Shown piece by piece: positions 10,647 through 55,871 of a stretch of DNA of 64,000 nucleotides. The DNA is from Gemmatimonas sp. GTDB taxonomy: Bacteria > Gemmatimonadota > Gemmatimonadetes > Gemmatimonadales > Gemmatimonadaceae. Location: contig JANNVQ010000014.1 of NCBI GenBank assembly GCA_031414535.1, positions 192,001 to 256,000 on the forward strand, written 5' to 3'. The notes under the pieces are model-generated. The model did not search any database and had not been told where the DNA came from. It worked only from the letters and a program-made list of their open reading frames with translations. The translations under genes and the position numbers were made by a program. Every line of letters begins with the position of its first letter. Position 1 is the first letter of the stretch.

Positions 10647-13600
10647 ATGTCTGAGCCACGGGAACTGCAGGGCAACGAAATCGCCATCGTCGGCATGGCG
10701 GGACGCTTTCCAGGCGCGCGCAGCTTGGCGGAGTTCTGGCGCAACCTCGAGGGCGGCGTCGAGTGCATCCGCATGCTGAGTGACGAAGAGCTGCGGGCAG
10801 CGGGAGTGTCGGAGCGTCAGCTCGCCGACCCCAACTACGTGCGCGCCGCGGCCATCCTCGACGACATGGAGAGCTGGGACGCCCCGTTCTGGGGATTCAC
10901 ACCGCTCGACGCGAGCATCATGGATCCGCAGCATCGCCTGTTCCTGGAATGCGCGTGGGAGGCATTCGAGGACGCCGGTCACGCGCCCGAACAGTTCGCT
11001 GGCGCGATTGGCGTATTCGCAGGCTGCGGCATGCAGGCCTACATGTCGTACAACCTGCTGCCCAACAAGAAGCTGATGGACAGCACGGGACTCTTTCTCG
11101 TGCGCCACACCGGCAACGAGAAGGACTTCCTCGCGACCCGCGTCTCGTACCAGATGAACCTGCGCGGCCCCAGCGTGAGCGTGCAGACGGCCTGCTCCAC
11201 CTCGCTGGTCGCGTTGCATCAAGCTTCGCAGAGCCTGCTCAGCGGCGAGTGCGACATGGCCATCGCCGGTGGCGTGACGATCGAGATGCCGCATCGCGTG
11301 GGCTACACGTACAAGGAGAACGAGATCCTCTCGCCGGACGGCCATTGCCGCGCTTTCGACGCCGAGTCCAAGGGCACGGTGTTCGGCTCTGGCGCGGGCG
11401 CCGTGGTGCTGCGTCGCCTTGAGGACGCGCTGCGTGATGGCGATCGCATTCACGCCGTGGTGCTCGGCTCGGCCATCAACAACGACGGTTCCAACAAGGT
11501 CGGATATCTCGCGCCGTCCGTGGATGGGCAGTCGGCGAGCATCGTCGAGGCGCTTGGCGTCGCGAACGTATCGCCCGACAGCATCAGCTACGTAGAGACG
11601 CACGGCACGGGCACGCCCGTCGGTGATCCCATCGAAGTCACGGCGCTCACCCAAGCCTTTCGTACGGGCACGGACCGTACGGGCTTCTGCGGCATCGGCT
11701 CGCTCAAGACCAGCATCGGGCACCTCGACACCGCCGCCGGTGTGGCGAGCCTCATCAAGACCGTGCTGGCCATGGCGCACCGCAAGCTGCCGCCGAGCCT
11801 CAACTTCACGGCGCCGAATCCCGCCATCGACTTTGCCGCGAGCCCGTTCTATGTGAACGCCTCGCTCAAGGACTGGAACGCTGAGCCGCGCCGTGCTGGC
11901 GTGAGCTCACTTGGCGTGGGTGGCACCAACGCGCATGTCATCGTCGAAGAGCCGCCAGTCGCCACGCCCTCGGGCCCTTCGCGTCCTTGGCAGCTCCTCA
12001 ACGTGTCCGCGCGCACGCGCACGGCACTGGATGTCGCGAGCGCCAATCTCGCGGACCATCTCGATGCCAATCGCGAGTTGCCGCTCGCCGATGCCGCGTT
12101 CACCCTGAGCACCGGACGTCAAGCGCTCAAGGAGCGGCGCATCGTGGCCGCCCGCACGCACGAGGAAGCACGCCGTTTGCTCGATGCGAACGAGAAGGAG
12201 CGCGTGTTCTCCGACACCGCGTCGGATCGCGCACAGGCGGCATTCCTGTTTGCCGGCGGTGGCGCGCAGTATGCGGGAATGGGCGCTGAGCTCTACGCGG
12301 CTGAGCCCGTCTACAAGCGGGCGGTGGATGAATGCCTGCAGCAGCTCGATGCGGACATCGCGCGCGAAGTACGAGCGTTGCTGCTGCCCGCCGCTGGAAC
12401 CGAAGCCGAAGGCTCGGCCCGACTCGAGCGCCCCTCGCTCGCCTTGCCGGCGCTCTTCAGCACGCAGTACGCGATGGCCAAGCTGCTGGAGTCCTGGGGC
12501 ATTGTCCCGGAATCGATGATCGGCCATTCGATGGGCGAGTACACGGCCGCGCATCTCGCGGGCGTCTTCTCGTTGAAGGACGCACTGCGTCTCGTGGCGC
12601 TCCGTGGTCGCCTGTTTGAAACGGTGCCTGCAGGTGCAATGCTCAGCGTACCGCTCTCCGAAGCTGAGTTGCGCCCCCTGCTCGGTACCGAACTCAGCAT
12701 CGCCGCCGTGAACGCGCCCCAGCTCTGCGTGGCGTCCGGACCTGTTGCAGCGATTGACGCGCTGGCCGCTGCGCTGGCGTCCAAGGAAATTGATGCCAAG
12801 AAGCTGCACATCGCCGTGGCTGCACACTCGGCGATGCTGGAGCCCATCCTGAAGGAGTTCGGCGACTTCTTCCGCACCATCAAGATGAGTGCGCCAAAGC
12901 GGCCGTTCGTCTCCAATGAGTCGGGCACTTGGATTACCAAGGAGCAGGCGACGGACCCAGAGTATTGGGTGCGCCACCTACGCAATACCGTACGCTTCGC
13001 CGACGGCGTCGCCGAACTCGTGCGCGATTCCGCGCGCGTGCTCGTGGAAGTCGGTCCGGGACGCGTACTCGCCACGCTGGCCCGTCAGCACCCCGACCGT
13101 CAGCAGTCGCAGTTAGTGATGACCACGATGCGTTCGTTCAGCGACGAAGGGGCGGACCTTCAGTTCGCACTCACCGCACTCGGTCGGCTCTGGGCGCGCG
13201 GCCTCAAGCCCGATTGGTCTGCCTACTGGAGCGATGAATCGCGTCGCCGGGTGTCGCTGCCGACCTATCCCTGGGAGCGTCAGCGGCACTGGATTGACGC
13301 ACCCGTCGCCGGCGCGAACGCCGAGCCTGACGAATCCCGCCGCACGCGCGTCGAGGATTGGCTGGCACGGCCCTCGTGGAAGCAGACACTTCCGCCATCG
13401 CCGATCACGGCCAAGGATGGGCGCGTGCTGGTGTTCGCCGACGAGACGGGCTTCAGCGATCTCTTGGCGGAACAGCTCCGCGCCGCCGGCCGTACGGTCC
13501 GCCGCGTCGTCGCGGGCAATGCGTATGGGCAGAATGCGGACGGCGGCTTCACCGTCCGTGCCGGCGCCATGGAAGACCACGGCAAGATGCTTGCGGCCCT

Positions 13601-39490: not shown

Positions 39491-39626
39491 GATGGCGAGA
39501 TGAGGACGGATCGAGAGGTACCGGCTCCAGTGCAGGAAACATACCGGCCAACAGACCTCTGTGTCATCCTGAAATCGCAGGAGCCGCCCACTGGCGATGC
39601 CTCCAAATCGGCACTAGCCTCCCCGT

Positions 39627-39926
39627 ATGCTCCCCCTTCCCTCCGCCACGGTGGTCTTCCAGCGCATTGATGACGGCGCCGTGCTCTTCGCGCCCGCCAC
39701 GGAGATCTACTTCGGCCTCAACGAAGTCGGCGCGCGCGTCTGGGAGTTGCTACCCCCCAAGAGCGACTCGCTCGACCAGCTTTGCGGCACGCTCGCTGCG
39801 GCGTACCCTGAGGTGCCCGCGACTGAGCTGAGGACAGACGTCGAGGAACTGCTCGCGCAACTCCTTCAGGAGGGACTCGTCACGCCGCCAAGCGGCGGGG
39901 CGTCTGATGGCCCGTCTGCGATCTAA
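39627..39926 (+). CDS. PqqD-family RiPP recognition element (lasso B1)
   Basis: AVLF...YFGLNEVGARVWELL...DVEELLAQLLQEGLV. Confidence 0.92.
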   Translation: MLPLPSATVVFQRIDDGAVLFAPATEIYFGLNEVGARVWELLPPKSDSLDQLCGTLAAAYPEVPATELRTDVEELLAQLLQEGLVTPPSGGASDGPSAI

Positions 39927-40356
39927 GATCGCGGACCGCCTCGCTGCACAGTTCGCGCTCCTGCGCGCCCGTCGGCTTCTGGCCACTGCGCCCATCGGCG
40001 CACTCACCACACGCCGAGTTGGAACGGCCCGAGTCGCAGACAGCGAGATTCAAGAGCCACCCCGCGCTGCACCTGAAGCGCAACTGCGCGCCGCGGCCTT
40101 GGGGGACGCGGTGCAATGGACCTCGACCCACGGACTGTTTCGTCCGTTTTGCCTCGTACAGGCGCTCGCACTGCAGGAACTCCTCTCCAAAGCGGGCATT
40201 CACGACAGTGAAATTCGCGTCGGGGTCCGGCGCGAGGGTAACTCGCTAAAAGCCCACGCTTGGGTGCGCTGGAACGGACAAGTCCTCGGCGACGACCCCA
40301 AGCACGTCAGCGAGTTCACCGAAGTGGACGACATTAGCGTCCTCGGTCTGCGATGA
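39907..40356 (+). CDS. Lasso peptide leader peptidase B2 (transglutaminase-like)
   Basis: CLVQAL, IRVGV, AHAWV and downstream D form a Cys-His-Asp triad. Confidence 0.92.
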   Translation: MARLRSKIADRLAAQFALLRARRLLATAPIGALTTRRVGTARVADSEIQEPPRAAPEAQLRAAALGDAVQWTSTHGLFRPFCLVQALALQELLSKAGIHDSEIRVGVRREGNSLKAHAWVRWNGQVLGDDPKHVSEFTEVDDISVLGLR

Positions 40357-40375
40357 TCACGCGGCAGCTCTCCTC

Positions 40376-42109
40376 ATGACCCGCATTTTCGTCCGTGCAG
40401 GCAGAGATACTCGGCCCGACGCTCCAGCAGACGCGGAGGCCTTGGGCTGGTGCGTGGTCGCAGACGCGACGCTGTACTACCAGACTGACTTGCGGTCGCG
40501 CATCGGCGGCACGGCAGGAAGTTCTGCCGAGCTCATCGCTCAAGCCATCGCGAAGGACTCACAACGTGCCCTCGACTGGCTCGAGGGTGATTTTGCGTTT
40601 GTCGCGTGGAAGCAAGACAGCGGCGAGATCATCGCCGCACGTGACTTCTCCGGCAAGCGTCCGCTCTTTTACGCCTCCGCGCCAGACGGTCTACTACTGG
40701 CAAGCGACGTCAGGGCACTACTCGCTGACCCAGCGGTCGACCGACGCATTGACCTCGCCCGGGTTGCCTCAGTGGCGGCCGGACTCTGGGCCCACGGTAG
40801 CGCCACGGGATACCAGGGTATTCACGAGCTCCCGGCCGGCTCCGTGTTGCGCTGGCGGCCCGGCAGCGCAGCGAGCATCACGCCGCACTGGAAGACACCC
40901 GAGCACATCGAAACGCGCCGCCAGCCACTCGACGAGGCCGCCGCAGAGCTGCGCGTCCTCCTCGATGCAGCTGTCCGCGAACGCCTCGCACCGAACGGGC
41001 GCACGGCAGTTTCGTTGAGCGGCGGATGGGACTCTACCGCCGTGTACGGAACCGCCAAAGCGCTCGGCGCGGACGTACACGGGGTAAGCGTCAGCTACCC
41101 TGAGGGCGATCCGGGCCGCGAAGACGAATTCATTCGCGAGGTCACGGCATTCTGGAAGACTTCGCCAGACTTTCTTGACGTTGACGACATCCCGCTCGCC
41201 AGTGATTGGAACGCTGAAGCCGTAGTGCGGCCGCTACCATTTGCACACGTGTATGAGCACTGGAACCGAGCCATCGCTACGCGTGCACGCGCCTCGGGAG
41301 CCACGGTTCTGCTCGACGGAGTCGGTGGCGACCAGCTGTTTCAGTGTGGCGACATCTTCCTCGCGGATTTGCTACGCGGCGGCCAATGGCTCGAGGCCGT
41401 ACATCAAGTGCGGCGACCAGACCGCACTCACGACTGGGCGCGTTTGAAGACTTGGGGCGTTGAGCCGCTGCTACCCGCGTGGTGGCGAGCACGGCGAGCG
41501 CGCCAGCAGAACCGCTTGTTCACTCAAGACTATCTCGAGCGCCTGCCGCCGCGATGGTTTCGGCACAGCTTTCTCCGCGAACATCAGCTCCTTGAACGTG
41601 AGCGCGCGGCACGGCCGCTGCGCCGCACGAGTTCTTTCGTGATGGCTGAAGCGCAGGCCTACATCGAGTTCGCGTACTTTCCCCGCGTGTTCGCGCTACT
41701 CAGCGGATTCGTGGCGGATGCCGGGCTAGAACTTCGCTCGCCCTTGCTCGATCAACGTCTGGTGCGGTTTGCGCTCCAGCGTCCGTGGAGCGACCGGGTG
41801 GATGGCGCTGAGACCAAGAACTTGCTCCGTCGCGCCATGCGCGGACGCCTGCCCGACAGCGTCCTCGCGCCGCGCCCACATCGCACTGGCACAACAAACG
41901 GCTATTTTCTACGCAGGCTTCGCGCGGACGCTTGGCCCGTGGCCCGCACACAGTTCAGTACGCTCCGCCTCGGCGAACTCGGGATCGTGGACCCACACGA
42001 ACTCGAGCGTGCGTGGCAGCACCTCCTCGAGCATGACGACGGCGAGCTCGCCGCACGGTTGTTCTTCACGTTCGCCACTGAACTCTGGCTTCGCTCACAT
42101 CATCCGTGA
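40376..42109 (+). CDS. Lasso peptide cyclase (asparagine-synthetase-like C protein)
   Basis: GDFAF, RDFSGKRPLFY, SLSGGWDST, GVGGDQLF, RSPLLD; no N-terminal Cys; follows B1/B2. Confidence 0.9.
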   Translation: MTRIFVRAGRDTRPDAPADAEALGWCVVADATLYYQTDLRSRIGGTAGSSAELIAQAIAKDSQRALDWLEGDFAFVAWKQDSGEIIAARDFSGKRPLFYASAPDGLLLASDVRALLADPAVDRRIDLARVASVAAGLWAHGSATGYQGIHELPAGSVLRWRPGSAASITPHWKTPEHIETRRQPLDEAAAELRVLLDAAVRERLAPNGRTAVSLSGGWDSTAVYGTAKALGADVHGVSVSYPEGDPGREDEFIREVTAFWKTSPDFLDVDDIPLASDWNAEAVVRPLPFAHVYEHWNRAIATRARASGATVLLDGVGGDQLFQCGDIFLADLLRGGQWLEAVHQVRRPDRTHDWARLKTWGVEPLLPAWWRARRARQQNRLFTQDYLERLPPRWFRHSFLREHQLLERERAARPLRRTSSFVMAEAQAYIEFAYFPRVFALLSGFVADAGLELRSPLLDQRLVRFALQRPWSDRVDGAETKNLLRRAMRGRLPDSVLAPRPHRTGTTNGYFLRRLRADAWPVARTQFSTLRLGELGIVDPHELERAWQHLLEHDDGELAARLFFTFATELWLRSHHP

Positions 42110-43041
42110 CCTCGCGTTATCTCGCCTTCGGCAGTCTGATGGAATCCGACATCGCCTTCCCCGACCTCGCGCTGGGTGGCGAGGGCGATGTACGCTGGCG
42201 AGTGTCGCACGTCGAGGCGCTCGCGCCGATGCACGAGCCGTGCGAACTTGGCCGCGAGACAATCTACGATGCCGTGGCCGCAACGCTCTACGCGCATCGT
42301 GACGGCCGTCGCATCGTGGTGGATGACACCGGCAGCTTCGACCTGCTGGCCGACGGCAGAATCCTCGTGGCTCCACTCGCCACGGCATCGGAAGCCTTCA
42401 TCAGGGCGCACATCCTTGGCCGCGTCCTTGCCACGGCTCTGCACACAGATGGCTGGTTGCCCTTGCACGCGAGCGCCGTGCTCACACGCGAGGGCGTGGT
42501 AGCGTTTCTTGGACCCAAGGGGATGGGAAAGTCCTCCTTGGCCGCGGCGATGGTCGAGGCAGGCGCACAGCTTGTCACGGATGACACGCTGCCCTGCCAA
42601 GCCAGCACGCCCCCCCGCGCTTGGCCAGGCATTCAGGCCTTGCGTGTACGAGACGATGTGCGCGAGGCCCTCCACCTACAGAACGGTAATCCGCTCGACG
42701 TCGACGCCCGACGCTTTTTGGTGTCGCTGGGCGCCGAGCGCCGCTCCCATAAGCCTGAGCCGCTGGCTGCTTTGTTTTTACTTGCGCCCGCCGAAGATGA
42801 ATTGCGTGCAGAGGCCGCCGTGCGCACGCCATTCGCACCCGTGCTTGGCGCGGCCGCCATCACCGCGCACGTGAAGTCCGGCGCAATGTTCGGCCCTGCC
42901 GCCGCTCCCGCGATGCTCGCACGCGCCGCGCAGATGGTGCACCTCGTGCCGGTGAATCAACTGTCCATCGTGCGCGACCTCGCGCGACTTCCCCAAGTCG
43001 CACAGACGGTCCTCGATTGGTACGGGGGTCCGCCGCGGTGA
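42106..43041 (+). CDS. HPr-kinase-like lasso peptide kinase (PadeK/ThcoK-type)
   Basis: LHASAV, P-loop GPKGMGKS, LVTDD. Confidence 0.85.
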   Translation: MTSRYLAFGSLMESDIAFPDLALGGEGDVRWRVSHVEALAPMHEPCELGRETIYDAVAATLYAHRDGRRIVVDDTGSFDLLADGRILVAPLATASEAFIRAHILGRVLATALHTDGWLPLHASAVLTREGVVAFLGPKGMGKSSLAAAMVEAGAQLVTDDTLPCQASTPPRAWPGIQALRVRDDVREALHLQNGNPLDVDARRFLVSLGAERRSHKPEPLAALFLLAPAEDELRAEAAVRTPFAPVLGAAAITAHVKSGAMFGPAAAPAMLARAAQMVHLVPVNQLSIVRDLARLPQVAQTVLDWYGGPPR

Positions 43042-43925
43042 TTGTCCAAGTGGACGGCATCGGCAAATCTTTTGCCGTGACGCCAGGCTGGGCCGCGCTC
43101 GTGCGAGCGCGAGCGGAGCCACGCCGTGTACTCGATGCGGTCAGCTTCTCCGTGAAGGAAGGCGAGATCTTCGGCTTGCTCGGCCCCAATGGCGCCGGCA
43201 AAACCACACTGTTCAAGATTCTCGCAACCTTGTTGGCTTCGGACGAAGGTGAGGCGCACATCGGTGGCTTCTCGGTGAGCGACGACGCGGCAAGTGCGCG
43301 AGCCTTGATTGCGCCGGTGCTGGCGAATGAGCGCTCGCTCTACTGGCGATTGTCCGCGTACGAGAACCTGCGGCTGTACGCCGTGCTCCAAGGTTTGGCG
43401 GCGCATCAGGTGGATGCGGAGATCACGCGCGTGCTCGCGGCCACTGGGCTCAGCGATACCCCGCCTGCAATGGTTGGCACTTTTTCGTCGGGCATGCGCC
43501 AGCGACTGCTTATTGCGCGCGCGCTCCTAGGACGTCCACGCGTGTTGTTACTCGACGAACCCACGCGTAGTCTCGACCCCATCTCGGCGCGCGACTTCCG
43601 TCGCTTCCTCCGTGATTCAGTAGTCCGCGCGGAAGGCTGCACAGTACTGCTCGCCACGCACGATGCCGGTGATGCCTGGGAGCTGTGCGATCGCGTGGCC
43701 GTGCTGCATCGCGGTCAACTCCTCGCCGTTGATGAGACCACCAAGCTGCGCGCGCGATTCGGCGGGCCCCAGCATGCCTTGATTGTGAACTCCGCGGAGA
43801 GAGATCACGCTCGAGCACTCTTAGAAGCCGGCGGAGTGAGCGTCATGCAGGAAGCCCCGCACGCCGCATCGCTGGCCGAACTCATTGAGCGGGCCATCGC
43901 CGATGCAGGGGCTCCGCATGCGTAA
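43038..43925 (+). CDS. ABC transporter ATP-binding protein
   Basis: GPNGAGKT, FSSGMRQR, LLLDEP, H-loop. Confidence 0.93.
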   Translation: MIVQVDGIGKSFAVTPGWAALVRARAEPRRVLDAVSFSVKEGEIFGLLGPNGAGKTTLFKILATLLASDEGEAHIGGFSVSDDAASARALIAPVLANERSLYWRLSAYENLRLYAVLQGLAAHQVDAEITRVLAATGLSDTPPAMVGTFSSGMRQRLLIARALLGRPRVLLLDEPTRSLDPISARDFRRFLRDSVVRAEGCTVLLATHDAGDAWELCDRVAVLHRGQLLAVDETTKLRARFGGPQHALIVNSAERDHARALLEAGGVSVMQEAPHAASLAELIERAIADAGAPHA

Positions 43926-44718
43926 AGCGCTCGCCCTCGCACGTGTTGGCTGGTTGAGTGCCACGAGTTATCGCGTGGCCACGTTGCTGCAGTTCGTGGG
44001 AGTACTCGCTACCATCGTGCCGGTGTATTTCGTCTCGCAAGCCATGCAGGAATTGGCTGCCTCGAGCATCCAACGAGAGGGTGGTGCGTACTTCGCGTTC
44101 ATCGTGGTCGGCATCGCGAGTACCTACATCGTCGCTGCGGCGACCACCGCCGTGTCGAGCGCGATTGCATCCAACCTCGGCTCCGGTACCTTCGAGGCCT
44201 TGCTTGGCACCCGCGCTTCTATCGTGTCTATCCTGTTTGGACTCTCGCTCCACGACTTGGCGATGTCGGCATTGCGTGCCCTCGCCTTGTTGGTAGGAGC
44301 AGCCGCGTTCGGCGCCGACATCCATTGGTTGGCACTGGTGAGCGTCCTACCAATCGTGGCGCTGGTAGTAGTTGCGTATGCTGGTGTCGGATTGGTAGCG
44401 GGGGCGCTGGTCCTCGCGTTCCGCACCGCCGGTCCGCTCGTCAGCATTACCATTGCACTCTCGGGATTGCTGGGCGGTGCGTACTACTCCACGACCGTCG
44501 TACCTGGCTGGCTGCATCCACTGACGGAGTTCGTACCGCTGACGCACGGACTGCGCGCCACGCGCGCCGTGTTGCTTGGTGGCGAAGGTCTCGCGACCAC
44601 CTGGCCAGATGTTCTGCGCTTGGCGAGTAACGCTCTGTTGCTCGTGACTGCGGGTGTGATTGCCTTCGCATTCGCCCTGCGTCGTGCGCGCGGCAACGGC
44701 TCGCTCTCTCAGTACTGA
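43918..44718 (+). CDS. ABC-2 type transporter permease
   Basis: About six TMs, GTFE.LL, P.WL...VPLTH. Confidence 0.88.
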   Translation: MRKALALARVGWLSATSYRVATLLQFVGVLATIVPVYFVSQAMQELAASSIQREGGAYFAFIVVGIASTYIVAAATTAVSSAIASNLGSGTFEALLGTRASIVSILFGLSLHDLAMSALRALALLVGAAAFGADIHWLALVSVLPIVALVVVAYAGVGLVAGALVLAFRTAGPLVSITIALSGLLGGAYYSTTVVPGWLHPLTEFVPLTHGLRATRAVLLGGEGLATTWPDVLRLASNALLLVTAGVIAFAFALRRARGNGSLSQY

Positions 44719-45902
44719 TGAGCACGCTTTCGCCGTCGCCCGAGCTACGCTTCGTTTTCCGCGCCGCCGATCCTCGCTGCGAAGCGCAGGAGCTGCTCGG
44801 CATCGCCGCGCAGATTCAGGATTGGCAGCGAGTCGCGCGCTTGGCAGAATCGGAAGGTGCGACGGCCGTGCTCTGGCGTATGCTGCGGCCAGTTGCCGCA
44901 CAACTGCCCGCGGAGTTCGTGATTTTCCTGCAGGCACGCACGATGCTCGCGGATTTTCGCATGCAGCGCCTCGCGCAGCGCGCGCAGGAAACCGTGGCTG
45001 CGCTTCGGGCTGCCGGCATTGACGTGCTGCTCCTCAAGGGAGCCGCCGTAGGCGCGCTTTGCGACCCCACGTTTCGTCTGCGACCGATGACGGACGTTGA
45101 TTTGTTGATTGCCGAAGCGGACGCGGAGCGAGCCAAGGCCTGCGTGCTGGGTTTGGATTGGATGGAAATGCCGGAGCCGCGTCTGCGCGAGCTGTTAGTG
45201 GGGCATCAACATCTGCCGCCGTTTGTGGATCCCACGCTCGAGGGCCTGCGGCTCGAACTGCACACGCGTCTACTGCCAGCGGATAGTTCGTTTGCATTGG
45301 TGGCGTCTGATCTCTGGCAACACGCGAACCTGGCACCGCCGCAGTTTGCCGGCGCAAAGGTCCCGGATCTCGCAAGGCTGGCCGTGCACACCGCCGTGCA
45401 TTTCGCATGGCAACACGAGATGCGCTTCGGTCCCTGGCGAACGTTTCGCTCGTTTGCCCTGCTCACGCAGCACGAGAGCTGGGATTGGCAGGCCTTCGTT
45501 GCGATTGGCCGCGACGCGCGGGCCAGCACCTCCTGCTACTGGACGCTGCGGATGGCTCGTACACTCAGTGGTGTCGACGTCCCCCGCGCGGTGTTGGCAG
45601 CGCTCGCGGCACCATCGCCTGAGTTTGTGCGTCGCATCTTGGACCGCCACTTCACGGCCGTCTCCGATCCGCTCGAGCGTCCGCCGTCACCGTCGGATCG
45701 TCTGGCAAGGCTGTTGTGGCGCATGGCCCTGCGCCCGCGATGGAGCGGACACCGCACGGTGAGTCGGTTCGATCCCGAACGACGTTGGGAGCGTGCGTTC
45801 AGTGAGACGGCTGAGCCGGCGAGCATGTCGCGCGTCAGGCGCCACGTCGGAGTTCGTGGAGACTGGTGGGCTTTTCTCACGCGTACGATTGCGGGGCGAT
45901 AG
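44718..45902 (+). CDS. Nucleotidyltransferase family protein (lasso-cluster type)
   Basis: LLKGAA, RPMTDVDLL, LELH; last gene of the lasso operon. Confidence 0.85.
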   Translation: MSTLSPSPELRFVFRAADPRCEAQELLGIAAQIQDWQRVARLAESEGATAVLWRMLRPVAAQLPAEFVIFLQARTMLADFRMQRLAQRAQETVAALRAAGIDVLLLKGAAVGALCDPTFRLRPMTDVDLLIAEADAERAKACVLGLDWMEMPEPRLRELLVGHQHLPPFVDPTLEGLRLELHTRLLPADSSFALVASDLWQHANLAPPQFAGAKVPDLARLAVHTAVHFAWQHEMRFGPWRTFRSFALLTQHESWDWQAFVAIGRDARASTSCYWTLRMARTLSGVDVPRAVLAALAAPSPEFVRRILDRHFTAVSDPLERPPSPSDRLARLLWRMALRPRWSGHRTVSRFDPERRWERAFSETAEPASMSRVRRHVGVRGDWWAFLTRTIAGR

Positions 45903-45913
45903 CGGCGCGAACT

Positions 45914-48262
45914 TTACGGACGGTCTACAAGACGTTCGAGTCGCTCAAGACGTGCCTTCAGGTCGTTCACTTCCGAGCGCAGTGTAGCGTTCTCGGCCTT
46001 CAAGGCATCAGAACGCAGAATGAGTTGCTGGACGGCAAAGAGATTGATGCCGTCAATGTCCACGAGCGTGATGGTGCGATCGCTGGTGCCGAGTCCGAAC
46101 GCCGCGCGAAAGTCCTGCGCGGTAGGTCCGACGTGACGCACGCTCGCGTTTTCCGTGGTGTAGCTCCACTCCTCGATTGGCATCGTGCGGATGCTTGAGA
46201 GCACCTGCTCGCCGTCGAGTGCAGTGAAGCTCTGCTTGCGATTGCGGTCGGAGAGGGAGGTCCATGAGCCGCTGCCTGGCGTGAGTTCGACACCGCTCGT
46301 CATGGCGCTGTTGGAATAGAGCGTATAGCCACCAGCTGCGCGCACGACGAACTGATTGTCTGCAGCGGCCGTCACGTTGGTGGTGGTCGAGTTGTCGCCG
46401 AAGACCAGTGCACCCTCTCGTCCGTTTGTTGAAGCCGCTGATCCGAGGGCGACGGATTGAATGCCGCTCGCGATTACATCCACGCCGATGGCCACCGCGC
46501 CAAGAGCAGATGCCTGAGGACCGAGCCCGATTGCGACGGATCCGACACCGGATGACTGGGAGGAGTTGCCGAGGGCGATGCTGCCGGTGTTAGATGCGGT
46601 GGTGAGGTATCCCACGGAGAAGGCAGCCAGTCCGCTCGCGACCGTAGTGCTTCCCATCGCAATCGAGTTTTCTCCGGTGGCCTGCGTTGAGAAGCCGAGC
46701 GAAACTGCCGACGCGGCCGTGGCGCGAGCGAGACTGCCAATCGCGAGGCTCGCCTCGCCACTGGCTAGCGTGTTGTTGCCGAACGCGGTGGAGTAGAGGC
46801 CGATGTTGGCATCGTTCCACTCGCTTAGAGTTCCAGCGTTATCGAGGCGTCCAGCGCGAATCGAGGCCTTGCGCGGATACCACAGGAAGCGCGAGCCCGT
46901 ACCAGCCGGCGCCAAATCGCCTGAGTTGATCGCGCCGCCCGTGGCCAAAATCGGGTTCGTGCCGATGGTGAGGCCGAGCGCTGAAATACGACCGGCCGCG
47001 AACGCACCATCCGCATCACGCTGCACGATTGCATCCGCGGTGTTCAGCGCCGTACCTGAGGCGTTTGTGCCGGCGGGCCCTTGTGGGCCGACGTCTCCCT
47101 GGAGTCCCTGAATTCCCTGAATCCCTTGAATTCCCTGCGGGCCAGCAGGGCCGGTTTCGCCCGTGGCTCCGGAATCACCTTGAACACCTTGAAGGCCCTG
47201 AAGGCCCTGCGGTCCCTGAGGACCTGCAGGGCCGGTGGCACCCGCTGCACCTGCAGGACCAGCGTCTCCTTGGATTCCTTGTGGGCCCTGAGGGCCGGTG
47301 GCACCGGTCAGGCCTTGAAGACCCTGAGCGCCCTGCGGGCCGGCTGGGCCCGTCGCGCCCGCGGCTCCGGAATCGCCTTGAACCCCCTGTAGGCCCTGTA
47401 GTCCTTGCGGACCCACAGGACCTGCCGGCCCTGTGGCACCTACGGCACCAGCAGGACCAGCATCTCCTTGGGCACCTTGTGGGCCCTGAGGGCCGGTAGC
47501 ACCGGTCAGGCCTTGAAGACCCTGAGCGCCCTGCGGGCCAGTCGCACCGGCAGCGCCAGCGGGACCAGCGTCGCCTTGAAGACCCTGAAGACCCTGGGGA
47601 CCAATAGCGCCAGCCGGCCCAGTCAGACCCTGCGGCCCGGCAGGACCAACCGCGCCGGCAGCTCCAGCTGGACCAACATCCCCTTGAAGACCCTGGAGAC
47701 CCTGCGGTCCCTGCGGGCCAGCGGCACCAGTCGCGCCGGCCGTGCCCGTGGGTCCGGTTAAACCCTGCGGCCCGGCAGGGCCAGCAGGACCAACTTCACC
47801 CTGCAATCCCTGCGCACCCGGAACGCCTGGAACACCCTGCGGTCCCTGCGGTCCCTGAGGTCCCTGAGGTCCAATCGCGCCCGCCGCGCCAGCCACACCC
47901 GCTGCACCAGCCACACCCTGCGGACCCGTTGCACCCTGCGCACCAGCCGGACCCTGCGGCCCCACCGGACCCTCAGACGTCCACGTAAACAGCACGTGCG
48001 TCGTCGCCACACAAGTCGTCGGCAGCCCCGCCGCGCCGACTCGATACACCGTGCCCGTCGTCGGCACGAAACACGCACGCAGAGTATCCGCCACGATCAA
48101 GGCGCCGGAGAACGCTGCACCGGCTCCTGCCATCGCAAACGAGGAGGAGGCGCTCAGGGAAACACCGAGCACCGCGGCAATTCCAAGCGCCGTGCCACGA
48201 AAGGTTGTGCGAAGTCGAGTAGACAACTGAAAGCTTCCTGCGAAAAGGGAGTTGAGCGACAT
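45914..48262 (-). CDS. Secreted collagen-like fibre protein with YadA-head-like repeats and C-terminal S74 intramolecular chaperone
   Basis: Signal peptide, Cys-pair N-domain, about 100 Gly-X-Y triplets, A.G..S.A.G repeats, SDRNRK cleavage motif, HVGPTAQDF, coiled-coil end. Confidence 0.88.
47069..47971 (-). repeat. Collagen Gly-X-Y coding repeat (about 100 triplets) with higher-order duplicated blocks
   Basis: Recurrent [10 protein letters not shown](VQG)D(A/S)G and [19 protein letters not shown] blocks, visible at DNA level. Confidence 0.9.
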
Positions 48263-48296
48263 CTCTTGGGAAACACGGCGCCACGGATCGCGAACT

Positions 48297-48689
48297 TCAG
48301 CCGTTCACAATCCAGGTCCGAGCGAACTGCAACGTGAGACGGAGCACTTCTACTTCGGGCGCCTTATCCGCGCTCGCGCCGCCAGCCAAAGTGTTGAAGG
48401 CCTGCACAGTCGCATTGAATGCCGTGCACGCAGCGGCGCGATCTGCCACGGCTACCGCCGACTCAAGCGCCGCGAGTTGGACGTCCACTGCGGGCGGCGC
48501 GGCCAGCGTCGGGAGCACACGGTCGCGCGCATCCTCTAACGCCGGACGTAGCGCCGCAGCGTTCGTGACCGTGTGCTGGAGAGGGGTGCCCAGTGCGAGA
48601 GCCGTACAATCAATTTGCGGCTCCGTTGGCGCTTCCGTACAGGCGGCGAGCCCGGCAAGCAACGCGAGGCCGAGCAGTCGACTTTTCAC
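48297..48689 (-). CDS. Small helical lipoprotein of unknown function
   Basis: [17 protein letters not shown] lipobox; directly upstream of the collagen gene. Confidence 0.7.
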
Positions 48690-48839
48690 TTAGATTTTTC
48701 TGTGATGGATTGCGGGAGAGAACCGTCTTGCTGTCCAGTATGCAATCTCCGTGCTGGAACCTAGCCGAGCCGTATCGGCCAGCACACCACGGGCTTGGGC
48801 AATCGGCAACCCATTCCTGGGCGCCAACGGGCCTCGACT

Positions 48840-49009
48840 TGTTGATGCGTGTGCACATAGTTGTTGCGAGAAAGCAACAGTCCCGTGCGTGATGTGGGTC
48901 ACGCGGGGGATCCTGGAGCCGTCACTGTCGCTTAAACTATTGTACAGCAAAGCTTTAAATATCACCGCTATAATTTCTCATCCGTGCTTGAGTCGGCATC
49001 AGTATTGCA
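48840..49009 (+). promoter_or_regulatory. Sigma54-dependent promoter of the lasso precursor with tandem enhancer boxes and IHF-like site
   Basis: TGTTGA-TGCGTG-TGCACA at 48840-48857; perfect TGTTGC-GAGAAA-GCAACA at 48862-48879; TAA-ACTA-TTG at 48933; CGGCATCAGTATTGCA (GG-N10-GC) at 48994-49009. Confidence 0.65.
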
Positions 49010-49057
49010 CTAGTCGTGTCCTGACTGGCCCCCTACTCAGAATTCCAGAGGATGTTG

Positions 49058-49234
49058 ATGTATCAGAAGCCCCAGCTCCAGAAGTTCGGTACCTTCCGCG
49101 AGCTCACACTCCTCGGTCTCAATAGCTCCACCGATGGCGCCGTCATTTTCGGCATCGGATCCCCAGGTTGCTCCACCACCATCGGGAAATGGACTTGGGA
49201 AATTGGCTGCCCTTCCGGGCCGCGCTCCTCCTGA
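49058..49234 (+). CDS. Lasso peptide precursor (58 aa)
   Basis: MYQKPQLQKFGTFRELTL matches the YxxPxLxxxGxxxxxT leader; core LGLNSSTD... has Asp8; GAGGA RBS; terminator follows. Confidence 0.9.
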   Translation: MYQKPQLQKFGTFRELTLLGLNSSTDGAVIFGIGSPGCSTTIGKWTWEIGCPSGPRSS

Positions 49235-49272
49235 ACCAGCGGCACATCGCGTAAACCTCAGTTTGCGCCACC

Positions 49273-49311
49273 ACGAGCCCCGAGCCTCTCGCTCCGGGCT
49301 CGTTTTTCTTT
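49273..49311 (+). terminator. Rho-independent terminator after the lasso precursor
   Basis: ACGAGCCC-c-GAGC/ctctc/GCTC-c-GGGCTCGT hairpin followed by TTTTCTTT. Confidence 0.8.
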
Positions 49312-49373
49312 CCCCGCCGCGACAGCATACTTCCCCAGTCGCGTTGCGCCCATAATTCCCCCGCTCCACCACG

Positions 49374-50303
49374 ATGCCGCTCTACTCGGCCTACGGCACA
49401 CGGCTCGAATCTGCCATCGAGTTTCCAGAGCTACCGCTCGCCAGCCGCGGACCGGCACGTTGGCGCTTCCGCATTGACGCCGAGCTTCCGGCAATGCGGG
49501 ATCCCGAAGAGCGCGGGTCGGAACTCATCCACGGCGACGTCTACGCGAGACTCTTCGCGCACCGCCGTGGCCTGCGTGTCTGCGTGGACGACACCGGCGA
49601 CTTCGATATCGCGCCCAACGGCAACATCGTCGCTACCACGCGCCCAGACGCGTGGGACGACTTCGTCCGGAATCATCTATTGGGCCGCGTCCTCGCCGTC
49701 GCGATGTTCGAAGCCGGCTGGCTACCGCTGCACGCGTCCGCCGTCGATACACCCGAGGGCGTCATCGCGCTCCTCGGACCCAACTCCGTAGGAAAATCTG
49801 CGCTCGCGATTGCACTCACTAATGCCGGCGCCACGCCAGTCGCTGACGATACGCTTCCCGTGGAATCGGGCACGCCACCCTGCGCTTGGCCGGGGTTACC
49901 CAACGTCCGCATTCGTGAAGACGTACGGGCTGCCCTAGACTTGCCCCGCAGCGGACTAGACACGCACGAAGGCAAGACCATCCTCGCGCCGGCGCCTAAT
50001 CACCATCCGAGCATGTCGCCTCGCCCGCTTGCTGGCATCTATTTGCTCGCGCCCAACGAGAACCTCGCGCGTAAAGCCGCCGTGGTGCGCACGCCCTTCG
50101 CACCCGTGCTCGCAGCACCGGCCATCGTTGCGCACGTTCGCGCCGGCGCGATGCTCGGCCGCGGCGCAGTCGCCACCATACTCCAGAGAGTGTCGCCAGT
50201 CGTGAGTATGGTGCCCGTGCACCAACTCTCGGTCTCCCGCGATCTGTCGCGGCTGGAGGACGCCGCCCGAGAGATCATGAGTTGGTACGCGGTCACCACC
50301 TAG
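49374..50303 (+). CDS. Second HPr-kinase-like lasso kinase (paralog of 42106..43041)
   Basis: LHASAV, GPNSVGKS, VADD; collinear similarity to the first kinase (VRTPFAPVL, VPV.QLS..RDL.RL). Confidence 0.83.
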   Translation: MPLYSAYGTRLESAIEFPELPLASRGPARWRFRIDAELPAMRDPEERGSELIHGDVYARLFAHRRGLRVCVDDTGDFDIAPNGNIVATTRPDAWDDFVRNHLLGRVLAVAMFEAGWLPLHASAVDTPEGVIALLGPNSVGKSALAIALTNAGATPVADDTLPVESGTPPCAWPGLPNVRIREDVRAALDLPRSGLDTHEGKTILAPAPNHHPSMSPRPLAGIYLLAPNENLARKAAVVRTPFAPVLAAPAIVAHVRAGAMLGRGAVATILQRVSPVVSMVPVHQLSVSRDLSRLEDAAREIMSWYAVTT

Positions 50304-50325
50304 TAGCCCTAGCACATTCATATAG

Positions 50326-50970
50326 ATGCCAGTCCCGCTTCTCGCCGCTCTCTCCGCCGCCGGATGGCTCACGGTCGGCACGCAGTTCATCCTCTCCATC
50401 CGGACCAGCCTTCTGAACGGCGGCTCGGCTTGGCACGGCATCGTGTCGTACTTCGGGTACTTCACCCTGCTCACCAACATCCTCTGTGCCGCCATCCTCA
50501 CGGCGCACGCCTTGGGTGGCAACAGCAGCCTTCAGCGGTTCCTGCGGCGGCCGGGCGTGACCACCACAGCCGCGACCTCCATCATCGTGGTCGGAGTGGT
50601 CTACCATCTCTTGCTCGCGGCACAGTGGAATCCCACGGGGATTGATCTCGTGGTGGACACCATGCTCCACACGGTGATGCCCATCCTCTTCGTGCTCGCG
50701 TGGACGCGTCTGGTACCGCGCGGCGCGGTTGCACTGGGCCACACACCGATGTGGAGCAGCTACATCTTGGCCTACGCGGTCTACATCCTCATCCGCGGCG
50801 CCATCATTGGCGTCTACCCGTATCCATTCATTGATGTCACCACCCTCGGCTACAGCATTGCCCTTCGCAATGCGGCCCTCTTGGGCGTAGCTTTTGTTGC
50901 GTTATCCGCTGGCATGGTCGGAGTGAATCGCGTGCTCGGCGCCCCCCGCAAAGAAACTTTGGAGAGCTGA
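50326..50970 (+). CDS. Pr6Pr/FAR-17a-like membrane protein
   Basis: YFTLLTN, VYHLLL, LH.VMP, YPYPFID. Confidence 0.8.
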   Translation: MPVPLLAALSAAGWLTVGTQFILSIRTSLLNGGSAWHGIVSYFGYFTLLTNILCAAILTAHALGGNSSLQRFLRRPGVTTTAATSIIVVGVVYHLLLAAQWNPTGIDLVVDTMLHTVMPILFVLAWTRLVPRGAVALGHTPMWSSYILAYAVYILIRGAIIGVYPYPFIDVTTLGYSIALRNAALLGVAFVALSAGMVGVNRVLGAPRKETLES

Positions 50971-52446: not shown

Positions 52447-52489
52447 GCGCGGGGGACAGGCCAAGTGTCTGTCCCCCGTGCTATTTTTT
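52447..52489 (+). terminator. Rho-independent terminator after the nucleoside transporter
   Basis: GCGCGGGGGACAGGC/caagt/GTCTGTCCCCCGTGC stem followed by TATTTTTT. Confidence 0.82.
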
Positions 52490-52493
52490 GCCG

Positions 52494-55400
52494 ATGCCAG
52501 CCATTGGACCCGCGTTGACCCCTGCTGAAGCATCCCAACGTCTGCGCGAAATGGCGGAGCGCTGGGCTGCCAATATCGATGCCACCGAGCGCGGAGCGTT
52601 TCAGCCGTGGTTCATCGAACTGTGCGAGGCGCTCGGCGTACCCAAGCCTTCCCAGACCTCAGACTATCAGTTCGAGCTCCCCGTGCGCGTGGTGGACCGC
52701 GAGGGTGAACTCGCCACGAACTTCATTGATGCTTGGCACACGGGGCACTTTGCGATGGAAGCGAAAATGTCCGAGCCGGGGCGGCAGAACGATGCGCTGC
52801 TCCGCAAGGCATTCGGCCAGGTGCGCACCTACGTCTCGCACGTTCCCGGTACGCCGCCGCCGTATTTGATGGTGGTGGACGTGCCGCGCACGCTCATCGT
52901 CTGGGACAAGTGGTCGGGCAGCTACGGTGACTTCGGCGCAGGGCGCCGCATCGCCCTCAGCAGCCTGCACGAGCGTGCAGACGACATCGCGCTCTTGCAG
53001 GACATCTTCGCTCGGCCCGAGGCTCGCGACCCGCGCGGGAGGGCTCAGGCGGTGACGAAGGAGATTGCTTCGCGGCTCGCCGCGCTTTCCGCGGCGCTGG
53101 AAGGTCGTGGATTAGACCAGGAGCGCGTCGCGCGCTTCCTGATGCGCTGCGTGTTCTCCTGTTTTGCTGAAGATGTTGGACTTCTGCCTGAACAGTTGTT
53201 CCGCAAGACGCTTGAGGCCGCGCGCAGTTCCGGCGATGCCACACGCCTCAAGGCCGCGCTCGAGCTACTGTGGAAGACAATGGACGAGGGCGGAATGTTT
53301 GGCGCAGAGATGCTGCATCGGTTCAATGGACATTTTTTCAAGACGCGTGAGGCACTGCCGCTTGAGCCTGCCGATGTCGCGCTGCTGATCGAGGCTACGT
53401 CATATGATTGGTCTCGTGTAGAGCCGAGCATTTTTGGCACGCTGCTCGTGCGCGCGCTCGACCCAGCCGAGCGGCACAGGCTGGGCGCCGAGTACACGCC
53501 GCGCGAGTACATCGAGCGACTCGTTGAGCCAACTGTGGTGGAGCCCATCCGCGAGCGCTGGGTGGCGGTGCAGGCCAGCGTCGTGCAACTCGAGGAGAGC
53601 GGCAAGAAGAAGGACACTGAGGCCGCCGTGAAGGCGCTGCTCGAGTTTCGCGGCTGGATGCGGACGCTGCGCTTTCTCGACCCCGCCTGTGGCAGCGGCA
53701 ACTTTTTGTATGTGACGATGGCGGCGGTGAAGCGCATCGAGCACGAAGTGTTGAACGAGTTGCAGCGCTTGAGTGGGGGCCAGGGTGGACTCGTGCTCGA
53801 CGAGGTGCATCCGCGGCAGTTCTTCGGCATCGAGATTAAGCCTTGGGCGCGCGAGATTGCTGAGCTCACGCTGTGGATCGGGTATCACCAGTTCTGGCGC
53901 GAGACGCACGGCGGGCGCACGCCACCGGATCCGATTCTTGAGGATACCGGCACGATTGAGTGCCGGGATGCGATTCTCGCGTATGATGAGATTGTGCATC
54001 GGCCGGAGAAGGACCGGCCGGATCCGACGCCGCGGATTGTGCATCCGGTGACGGGAGAGTTGGTGCCGGATCCTTCGGCGAAGTTGCCGTACTATGAGTA
54101 TGTGAATGCGCGGCCGGCGGAGTGGCCCGAGGCGGATTTTATTGTGGGGAATCCGCCGTACTTGGGGTCCTAGCGGATGCGGGGCGCCTTAGGCGACGGG
54201 TACGTTGAGTCACTGCGCTCGGCTTGGTCGCCGCTGCCTGCTGCTCTCGATCTCGTCTCTTACTGGTGGCATCGGGCCGCGTCTTGTGTGGCGGCGGGCA
54301 GGACTATTCGTGCGGGACTCATCACAACGAACTCGATTACCCAAGGGCATAATCGAACGGTCATTGCCAGTGCTCGCAAGGATGGTGCGGGAGTTGTTTG
54401 GGCGGCAAAGAATCATCCATGGTCAGACGCTGCCGACTCCGCCGCGGTCGCAGTGAGCATGACTGTCGTTTCGAAAGAGAATTTGCCTCCGCGGCTTGTT
54501 TTTGTCAGTGATACCACAAGCACACCTGTTTCGAGAGTTGTCACGCATGTCAATGACGACCTGACGGCAGGAGCAGACGTGGCGGCGGCTGTTCGTGTGC
54601 GGCTACGCTCCAATGAAGGACTCACGGCTTTTGGGTTCGCCCTCCACGGCGATGGATTCTTGCTGCGTAGAGATGAGGCCGATCTGCTGCTTGCTCGCTC
54701 GGCGCAAGAAAGAGCGGTTGTAAAGCCTTACCGAGGCGGCCGCGACCTTACAGATCGCGCTCGAGACCTCTTCGTAATCGACTTTGGTTACATGACTGAG
54801 GACGAGGCACGGCGCTTCCCGCTCGCATTCCAGCGCGTCGCGGACCTTGTCAAGCCGGAGCGAGATGCGAACGCGCGCCAGTCCATCCGGGAGTTCTGGT
54901 GGAGGTTTGGGTGGCCACGTCGTGAACTTCGAGACGCACTACTGGGCATCAGCACTTACATCGCAACTACCGAGACCGCGAAGCACCGAACGTTCTCCAT
55001 GATCGATGCAGCCGTCGCACCGGATCATATGGTGGTTTCGATTGCGACCGACAGCCACTTCGTTCTGGGAATCCTGTCGTCCGAAGCTCACCGCACTTGG
55101 TCGTTGGCCGTAGGCGGCACGCTCGAGGATCGTCCACGCTACAACAAGTCCCTCTGCTTCGACCCCTTCCCATTCCCCGACCCCGCTCCGGCCCTCCGCA
55201 CCAAGATCGCCGAAGTAGCCAATCACCTCGACACCCACCGAAAAGCCGCCCTCGCCCGCGACGAACGCGTCACGATGACCGGCATGTACAACGTCGTCGA
55301 GAAACTCCGTAGCGACGAAGCGCTCACGACTAAAGAACGCGCCATCCACGAGATCGCCGCCTGCGGCATCCTCCGCGATCTCCACGACGAGCTCGACAAG

Positions 55401-55871
55401 CTCGTCGCCGAGGCCTACGGCTGGCCCTGGCCCATGGAGCGCGAAGAGATCCTCGAGCGCCTCGTCGCCCTTCACGACGAACGAGTCGAAGAAGAAAAGC
55501 GCGGCATCATCCGCTGGCTTCGCCCCGAATATCAGATTCCGCGCTTCGCGCCTGAGCAGGCCGAGGCCATCCTCGCGCTCGACGAGTCGGAGAAGCCCGC
55601 CAAGAAGCGCAGCAAGAAGTCGAAGGCCGCGGATTCTTCGGATGAAGCGCCAAAGCCGACCGCCACGCCCTGGCCGGCCACCGCTGTTGAGCAGATTTCC
55701 GCGATCAGTGCCCTCATCGCGCAGCAGTCACGCTCGGCGGCCGAGGTCGCGGCGGCGTTCGCAGGGGCACGGACTGAGCTCGTGACGCGACACCTCGACA
55801 CGCTGGCGCTCATGGGCGAGGTCACCCTTGGACCCGACGCGCGGTATCAGGCCTCGAGAAAGGCCGCGTAG
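52494..55871 (+). pseudogene. MmeI-like type IIL/IIG fused restriction-modification enzyme interrupted by one in-frame TAG (54171-54173)
   Basis: N-terminal D...EAK nuclease motif, FNGHFF, IFGTL, YTPR, LDPACGSGNFL, then GNPPYLGS*RMRGALGDGY continuing in frame into GLITTNSI, TRD and FDPFPFP...LDKLVAEAYGW. Confidence 0.85.

Follow-up and report, generated by a model that had tools for sequence, protein, structure and literature searches.

The window analysed here, a stretch of 64,000 nucleotides (nt) of Gemmatimonas sp. (assembly GCA_031414535.1, contig JANNVQ010000014.1, positions 192,001 to 256,000), derives from an uncultured sediment bacterium and holds at 49058-49234 (+) an open reading frame (ORF), termed A below, which is very probably a genuine, processed lasso precursor. 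Translation of A gives 58 amino acids (aa), an 18-aa leader followed by a 40-aa core, and the explanation that we prefer combines this precursor with a Leu1-Asp8 ring, a disulphide in the tail and a phosphate on the terminal Ser; that all of these hold together we regard as having a somewhat better than even chance. Judged by its sequence, A is a member of a catalogued Gemmatimonadota lasso family that is known by prediction only, and the genomic finding is an expected member of this already catalogued set.

Precursor gene and peptide

The elements of the precursor gene are the following.

49047-49052, +: Shine-Dalgarno-like AGAGGA (contains GAGG), about 5-6 nt 5' of the ATG at 49058, found by direct reading
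49058-49111, +: leader, 18 aa, MYQKPQLQKFGTFRELTL, with Tyr-17, Pro-14, Leu-12, Gly-8 and Thr-2
49112-49231, +: core, 40 aa, LGLNSSTDGAVIFGIGSPGCSTTIGKWTWEIGCPSGPRSS, with Leu1, Gly2, Asp8, Cys20, Cys33, Ser39 and Ser40
49249-49312, +: two hairpins 3' of A, the second (49273-49303) followed by a T-run

A starts with the ATG at 49058 and stops with the TGA at 49232-49234. An alternative in-frame ATG at 49052 would prepend Met-Leu, and 49058 was taken as the start because homologues open with M/V-Y-x-K-P. A preliminary description of this ORF, made from the letters alone, had read it as a lasso precursor with the leader motif YxxPxLxxxGxxxxxT, Thr at -2 and a 40-aa core. The translation confirms the motif (Y2, P5, L7 and T17 of the 18 aa) as well as the core, and the peptide passes the NCBIfam model NF033521, 'lasso RiPP family leader peptide-containing protein', with 26.6 bits at a cut-off of 19. 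The core contains exactly two Cys, 20 and 33, both past the predicted ring, and an Asp at position 8, within the range of 7-9; the codons of Asp8, Cys20, Cys33 and Ser40 lie at 49133-49135, 49169-49171, 49208-49210 and 49229-49231, respectively. For the phosphorylated product, the computed monoisotopic masses are 4054.859 with the phosphate and 4216.912 with the phosphate and a hexose.

When A was compared with its counterpart in the closest relative, G010, 21 synonymous and 9 non-synonymous codon differences were counted among the 52 codons compared. The DNA similarity between the two opens at the start codon and, around A, spans only 49057-49185, at 75%. Behind A, the predicted RNA fold (-39.4 kcal/mol, z -7.1) was equalled in stability by 0 of 200 shuffled sequences, and a terminator scan gave a match at 49281-49302, with 0.9 matches expected by chance in the region; the second hairpin looks like the intrinsic terminator of the precursor gene. 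A consensus scan of 48250-49450 for sigma-70, which covers one promoter type only, returned 0 promoter-like sites.

Conservation of the precursor in Gemmatimonadota

Among 401 genomes of this phylum, 56 contain precursor homologues (E<=0.01), counting G000, the genome that holds the window; without the two unpublished matching genomes, G157 and G182, the count is 54/399. By family, the genomes with homologues number 30/93 (f1), 16/166 (f2), 7/70 (f7), 1/7 (f4) and 1/4 (f8), with none in seven smaller families. A leader-pattern scan of a species-level genome collection gave 207 matches, 189 of which were confirmed, and the best 80 of those are titled Gemmatimonas, Gemmatimonadaceae, Gemmatimonadales, Longimicrobiales or Gemmatimonadota, with one 'uncultured bacterium'. 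The preliminary description had suspected a poorly mined phylum, and the homologue titles, which agree on Gemmatimonadota, bear this out.

For residue counts, 97 distinct leader-pattern peptides were drawn from 110 loci (L001, L004-L032, L052-L131), with L002, L003 and the context loci left out. An Asp stands nine residues past the leader Thr (Asp8) in all 97. Y2, P5, G11, R14, T17 and D26 are invariant in 32 relatives, and the invariant positions of a 20-sequence subfamily alignment include G20 (core Gly2), D26 (Asp8), G27, S35-P36-G37-C38 and C51. Both Cys are kept in 20/20 subfamily peptides. The C-terminal residue is Ser in 69 family peptides, Thr in 7 and another residue in 21, and 94/97 have a Ser among the last four residues. 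In the subfamily alignment the last position is almost always Ser (at least 90%; by block reading all 20 sequences end in Ser), and the penultimate residue varies between S, T and A. The C-terminal Ser-Ser highlighted in the preliminary description is therefore present as Ser39-Ser40, but only the last Ser is conserved. Its emphasis on an unusually long core likewise stands in one respect and falls in another: 40 aa exceeds the characterised maximum of 33 aa but is normal for the family, in which cores range from 23 to 49 aa with a median of 37 and 71/97 are longer than 33 aa.

Gene content was compared in 20-kb regions of 16 relatives. A counterpart of A together with the genes B1, B2, C and K described below was found in 13/16 of these loci, a kinase gene in 15/16, and a PF14907 gene near the cluster in 15/16, extended regions included. 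Some loci depart from this arrangement. In L039 neither B1 nor B2 was detected in the region. In L035 (G308:C55) B2 (12323-12709) is followed by the kinase (12742-13656) with no cyclase between them, and the sole match resembling an asparagine synthase, 30% identical, lies 5 kb upstream. L041 (G356:C1:3755000-3774999) has tandem precursors at about 9788 and 10175, and tblastn under the filter used found no B1, B2, C or kinase within 10 kb on each side of them; G356 carries four precursor matches in total.

Biosynthetic genes and proposed pathway

The genes that would process, tailor and export the peptide are listed below. The recognition element is that of ribosomally synthesised peptides with post-translational modifications (RiPPs), and ABC stands for ATP-binding cassette.

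39627-39926, +: B1, PqqD-type RiPP recognition element (RRE), PF05402, E 5.7e-18
39907-40356, +: B2, transglutaminase-like leader peptidase, PF13471, E 8.3e-19; NF033537, 73.6 bits against a cut-off of 33
40376-42109, +: C, asparagine-synthetase-like lasso cyclase, PF00733, E 7.8e-36
42106-43041, +: K1, HPr-kinase-like tailoring kinase with weak HPrK matches, orthologue of the single kinase of G010
43017-43925, +: ABC exporter ATPase, PF00005
43885-44718, +: ABC-2 permease of the exporter, PF01061
44718-45902, +: nucleotidyltransferase, PF14907, E 4e-29, 102.4 bits against a cut-off of 31.2
49374-50303, +: K2, second HPr-kinase-like tailoring kinase, directly 3' of A

B1, B2, C, both kinases, the exporter and the PF14907 gene are all intact and lie within the same 11 kb as A. 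B1, B2 and C sit 7-9 kb upstream of A, not adjacent to it, and form the only B2-containing set in the genome, B2 giving a single match in G000; together with the NF033521 result, this upholds the reading of A as a lasso precursor. C scores 173.5 bits against NF033535, under the cut-off of 525. The PsmN/BsfN-type genes of lasso clusters carry the same PF14907-type nucleotidyltransferase annotation in the literature, and a phmmer search of the nucleotidyltransferase against PDB sequences returned only unrelated small proteins (E>0.4). Because G000, which is 98.4% complete, has one B2, one precursor and two kinases (both in the window), A is, on sequence grounds, the sole substrate candidate for the single lasso machinery that this genome has.

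A predicted complex between B1 and the leader lends weak support to their pairing, with a score of 0.51 against 0.02 for the best control, at least 96% contact agreement between runs and a predicted local distance difference test (pLDDT) of at least 57 for the partner. The mark used for such predictions was reached by 116/157 solved complexes and 2/215 mismatched pairs; at scores of 0.60 or lower, 18/157 solved complexes reached it, as did both of the passing mismatches. The pass of the B1-leader pair may reflect likeness only, because RRE-leader complexes have already been solved.

From the paeninodin-, pseudomycoidin- and Bsf-type pathways the following course may be proposed. B1 would bind the leader, and the linear precursor would receive a phosphate from one or both kinases, most likely at the Ser40 side chain. 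B2 would then cleave after Leu-1, and C would adenylate Asp8 and couple it to the Leu1 amine, so that an 8-residue ring would form around the threaded tail. The nucleotidyltransferase may attach a hexose to the phosphate, and the ABC pump would export the product. Cys20 and Cys33 would oxidise, probably without an enzyme, to a tail-tail disulphide of the class IV type, enclosing a 12-residue segment that may form a beta-hairpin.

Tailoring kinases and the probable site of phosphorylation

A profile of 25 Gemmatimonadota kinases matches HPr kinase/phosphatase (HPrK/P) structures over the P-loop region, with 1ko7 at E 4.8e-6 and 1jb1, 2qmh and 3tqf as further matches (E 4.8e-6 to 2.3e-4 for the range). 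The AlphaFold2 (AF2) model of K2 has a pLDDT of 92.5, and Foldseek matches it to the folds of phosphoenolpyruvate carboxykinase (PEPCK) and HprK/P. H120, K141, D158 and D159 are invariant across the 25 kinases; this set corresponds to the His-Lys-Asp-Asp motif that is reported to be essential in lasso kinases (PMC9266682). The preliminary description had connected the terminal Ser with paeninodin-type kinases, and two HPr-kinase homologues with His-Lys-Asp-Asp are indeed present.

Lasso kinases act on the linear precursor, whose terminal Ser they phosphorylate with little regard for the remaining peptide, and in pseudomycoidin a nucleotidyltransferase puts a hexose on the phosphate (PMC8498205, PMC9266682). 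By analogy with these systems, a phosphate on the terminal Ser of A seems fairly probable. Several results pull in the other direction. The Pfam and NCBIfam HPr-kinase matches of both K1 and K2 fall under the cut-offs, and a phmmer search with K2 alone against PDB sequences gave 0 matches. The kinase BsfK is an exception to the rule, since it phosphorylates Ser3 of the ring, not the terminus (PMC10368454), and 28/97 family peptides lack the terminal Ser despite adjoining kinases, as in L013, which lies by the G111 kinase.

These last two points also speak for kinases that act elsewhere or additionally, on other Ser or Thr residues, e.g. Ser5, Ser6 or Thr7 of the ring, with sites that may differ between K1 and K2. 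Such a course would suit the Bsf cluster, which also has K and N genes (PMC10368454), the divergence of the two kinases (49% identical) and the abundance of Ser and Thr at ring positions. We nevertheless consider it unlikely: the 20-peptide subfamily hardly varies in its terminal Ser, which 69/97 peptides of the wider family also have, no ring Ser is invariant across the family, and the remaining characterised lasso kinases all target a C-terminal Ser (PMC9266682, PMC8498205). Phosphorylation at Ser40 is thus the assignment that we retain.

In the tree of the 25 kinases, K1 is sister to the G010 kinase (100/99) and K2 is sister to that pair (100/98). Because of this position, K2 would be either an older paralogue or an import from a close lineage that was not sampled. 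Outside G000 it is matched at 51% at best, in a search where 44/101 family genomes matched, among them the unpublished G157 and G418. The window is not alone in having paired kinases: in two other genomes of the same family, two kinase homologues lie 1-3 kb from each other, at G029:C5:228582-231374 and G449:C16:12978-17025.

Ring register and probable tail disulphide

In lasso leaders position -2 is Thr, rarely Ile or Val, and YxxPxL spans -17 to -12, a rule that places Gly1 and Asp8 in BsfA (PMC10368454). Because the same rule applied to A puts Thr at -2 and makes Leu19 core position 1, a Leu1-Asp8 ring is predicted, as in the preliminary description. This register agrees with the constant Thr-Asp spacing (97/97) and with the published LassoPred table, in which the split is identical and the ring length is 8. 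We hold the Leu1-Asp8 ring with good confidence. Core position 1 itself varies among the 97 peptides (V 32, I 27, A 14, L 12, W 7, Q 2, F/T/G 1 each).

That variability, next to a Gly at core position 2 in 96/97 peptides, weighs against the Leu1 register, as it could suggest a cut one residue later: B2 would cleave after Leu19, Gly would start the core and a 7-residue Gly1-Asp7 ring would result. Most characterised lasso peptides begin with Gly, and a Gly1-Asp7 ring is reportedly found in huascopeptin; cores with other starts are also known, with Trp in fusilassin, Ala in paeninodin and Leu in citrulassin. A Gly start would, however, shift Thr to -3 and YxxPxL to -18 to -13, in conflict with the rule of -17 to -12 (PMC10368454), and LassoPred gives the relatives a ring length of 8. 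Moreover, L028 (core GNLGGFGD...), the sole peptide without Gly2, retains the distance from Thr to Asp and has its Gly at position 1, which argues against cleavage before the conserved Gly. On balance the later cut is improbable, and the Leu1-Asp8 register is kept below.

The two tail Cys pointed out in the preliminary description are invariant in the subfamily, and a Cys20-Cys33 disulphide is probable in the predicted product. Class IV clusters carry no extra enzyme for the disulphide (PMC9266682), and because of this its formation here would probably be non-enzymatic. The inter-Cys segment is 8-16 residues long in the subfamily and has an alternating residue pattern, e.g. STTI-GK-WTWEI; in a low-confidence AF2 model short strands appear at precursor residues 39-42 and 45-48 (core 21-24 and 27-30), which is only a hint at a beta-hairpin. 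Three results sit uneasily with this picture of the threaded, stapled tail. The AF2 model of the precursor, made from a 20-row alignment, has a pLDDT of 51.3 and a predicted template modelling score (pTM) of 0.18; the LassoPred plug guesses for the 80%-identical relative described below disagree (positions 29, 18 and 13); and a single-Cys peptide with the same leader type is listed in row 935 of the LassoPred table.

Cys numbers vary within the wider family: 53 of the 97 peptides have two (44 of them with both past position 9), 37 have three, six have none, one has five, and none has a single Cys; 9/97 have a Cys within the ring region. A clade comprising L008-L010, L013, L017 and L065-L130 (37/97 distinct peptides) has three Cys in the arrangement DG[FY]TICG...C...C and often terminates in ...GSPV[ST/G/A] instead of Ser; its odd number of Cys misfits a simple single-disulphide model. 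In nine others (L011, L012, L021, L024, L027, L096, L104, L107 and L123) a Cys at core position 7 is accompanied by one tail Cys, a pair that would be ring-to-tail, class III-like, within the same leader family.

Displacement of the precursor gene

In the four closest relatives the gene order is A-B1-B2-C-K-ABC-ABC-NTase (nucleotidyltransferase), and in G010 a nucleoside transporter gene lies directly 3' of the cluster. Upstream of B1, the similarity between the window and G010 reaches only 36 nt 5' of B1, and no A is present at this site of the window. Both A and K2 are found further on, between the nucleotidyltransferase and the transporter, within a 5-kb block (45914-50970) that is missing at the syntenic site of G010. 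Besides A and K2 the block contains three further genes.

45914-48262, -: collagen-repeat / YadA-head / Peptidase_S74 (tail-spike chaperone) protein, 782 aa, secreted-looking
48297-48689, -: lipoprotein-like ORF, 130 aa
50326-50970, +: Pr6Pr family membrane protein, 214-aa ORF, NF038065, E 1.6e-38, directly 3' of K2

In G010, an acyltransferase and an Ig/LRR protein (immunoglobulin and leucine-rich repeat) occupy the 4 kb that separate the outer-membrane-protein gene from A, and nothing in this stretch is related to the inserted block of the window. The comparison of sequences indicates that A is moved out of its ancestral position before B1, and only this displacement of the precursor, together with the second kinase beside it, is particular to G000. 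The rearranged order was checked against contigs of three DNA runs. In X1, the possible source sample, single contigs bridge the region from NTP5 to the collagen-like gene (39000-47269), and a single contig runs from the collagen-like gene through A into K2 (47510-50072). In X2, a second sample, parts are covered identically and no junction is bridged among the pieces listed; because the X2 pieces span no junction, independent support for the rearranged order is incomplete.

The position of A, 3.1 kb past the cluster end, behind two opposite-strand genes and with the ancestral site before B1 empty, is one difficulty that the locus itself raises for a working pathway. A could be a stranded relic, neither expressed with nor processed by the cluster after the rearrangement, the pathway being silent; the two opposite-strand genes that part A from the cluster, the consensus scan without a sigma-70-like promoter, and the occurrence elsewhere (L041) of precursors without machinery within 10 kb on each side all fit such a history. 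We judge it quite improbable, since A is an intact ORF with a Shine-Dalgarno-like site in front of it and a terminator behind, synonymous codon differences from the relative prevail over non-synonymous ones (21 vs 9), A is the only precursor for otherwise intact machinery and is followed by an intact kinase gene, and the promoter scan was limited to one promoter type. That A might be a chance ORF of GC-rich DNA resembling a lasso leader, as could be suggested by the 158 ORFs (each at least 40 aa long) that 15 kb of this high-GC DNA contain, is refuted practically beyond doubt by its conservation beside lasso enzymes in 56/401 genomes, by the NF033521 pass and by a DNA similarity that does not extend beyond the ORF and in which synonymous changes prevail. 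The structural reading of the preliminary description is, as far as sequence goes, supported, and it is the best supported of those considered.

Other genes near the locus

The 214-aa Pr6Pr ORF was considered as a cluster gene and rejected, as it has no counterpart in the loci of 16 relatives; it is probably outside the lasso pathway. It is followed in the window by the nucleoside transporter gene, and the closest relative lacks a counterpart of the block that runs from this transporter to about 57.5 kb. At 52488-55871 (+) lies an MmeI-family restriction-modification gene broken by a single in-frame TAG (54171-54173), which falls directly after the NPPY methyltransferase motif; the N-terminal part, the helicase spacer and the first methyltransferase (Mtase) part precede the TAG, and the remaining Mtase part and the target recognition domain (TRD) follow it.

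Significance and comparison with known systems

A 40-residue product with an 8-residue ring, a disulphide-closed tail segment and a phosphorylated or phosphoglycosylated end would widen the size range of lasso peptides beyond 33 residues, the limit given in PMC13352647, where the size records are pandonodin with 33 aa (class IV, 18-aa tail) and achromonodin-1 with 30 aa. Such a product would test the threading of so long a tail by the cyclase and would show whether tailoring kinases accept long, Cys-rich substrates, and the 189 family loci, with 0-, 2- and 3-Cys as well as ring-Cys forms, are a ready natural test series. A bolder proposal, which we regard as speculative and rather doubtful, is that these are the largest natural lasso peptides (40 aa, up to 49 aa in relatives), in which a Cys-stapled hairpin below the 8-residue ring would serve as the stopper instead of a bulky side chain, and in which the Ser would be phosphorylated and possibly glycosylated through two diverged kinases and a nucleotidyltransferase; such a peptide would be the first lasso to unite a tail disulphide with phosphorylation, and the first from Gemmatimonadota.

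The combination of features that was not recognised in the preliminary description is less novel than it was made to appear, since close relatives are annotated by NCBI and included in a published prediction table. The nearest relative, P0006, is 80% identical and bears the NCBI name 'lasso RiPP family leader peptide-containing protein'; in the LassoPred table this peptide has the leader MYEKPTLQRFGTFRELTL, a 41-aa core, a ring length of 8 and the isopeptide at 8. Supplementary file 3 of LassoPred (PMC12214591) has 28 Gemmatimonadota entries, 16 of which belong to the precursor family by our leader reading, including cores of 41, 44 and 49 aa; predicted lasso sequences there range from 12 to 160 aa, compared with 14-33 aa in solved structures. 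The readable part of the LassoESM supplements contained none of three family motifs. A literature search for lasso peptides and Gemmatimonadota, judged by search listings, found no isolated lasso product, and lasso clusters were only counted in 29 marine Gemmatimonadota metagenome-assembled genomes in the accessible part of PMC11316326.

The catalogued relatives resemble A closely. The LassoPred rows LP_MBX3173942_1, LP_MBK7905640_1 and LP_MBL8998680_1 have the same leader family, the same split at Thr-2 and a ring length of 8 with Asp8, and the LassoPred and NCBI relatives share the core pattern GIGSPGC...GCP, two Cys and a terminal Ser, in cores of 34-49 aa. In the accessible parts of the sources they are sequence listings without commentary on product, modification or cluster. 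The peptide of the window differs from them in sequence, and its gene lies off the ancestral position, beside a second kinase.

The citrulassin core starts with Leu, as the preliminary description also states. Like the predicted product of A, citrulassin A closes its ring on Asp8, for which PMC8498205 mentions a D8E variant. The likeness is one of description only, and citrulassin A is actinobacterial, with a short core, a citrulline, no kinase and no Cys.

With pandonodin, of class IV, the predicted product would share a long C-terminal tail with a tail-tail disulphide (PMC13352647). Pandonodin is, however, proteobacterial, the accessible parts of the source report no kinase or nucleotidyltransferase for it, and the core in the window is 7 residues longer.

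Paeninodin and pseudomycoidin, both from Bacillota, have the split B1/B2, an HPr-kinase homologue with His-Lys-Asp-Asp and a Ser end in common with the window, and the pseudomycoidin cluster also has a nucleotidyltransferase gene (PMC8498205, PMC9266682). In a comparison by description only, both are class II peptides without Cys from another phylum, whereas the window has two kinases and a 40-aa core in which two tail Cys are conserved.

The Bsf system of Bradymonas sediminis is likewise a Gram-negative cluster of A, B1, B2, C, D, K and N genes, with YxxPxL at -17 to -12 and an 8-residue ring closed on Asp8 (PMC10368454). In contrast to A, it has Gly1, Ile at -2, a phosphate on Ser3 of the ring, a 21-aa core and a C-terminal Asp (PMC10368454); in the window, Thr stands at -2 and the 40-aa core ends in Ser.

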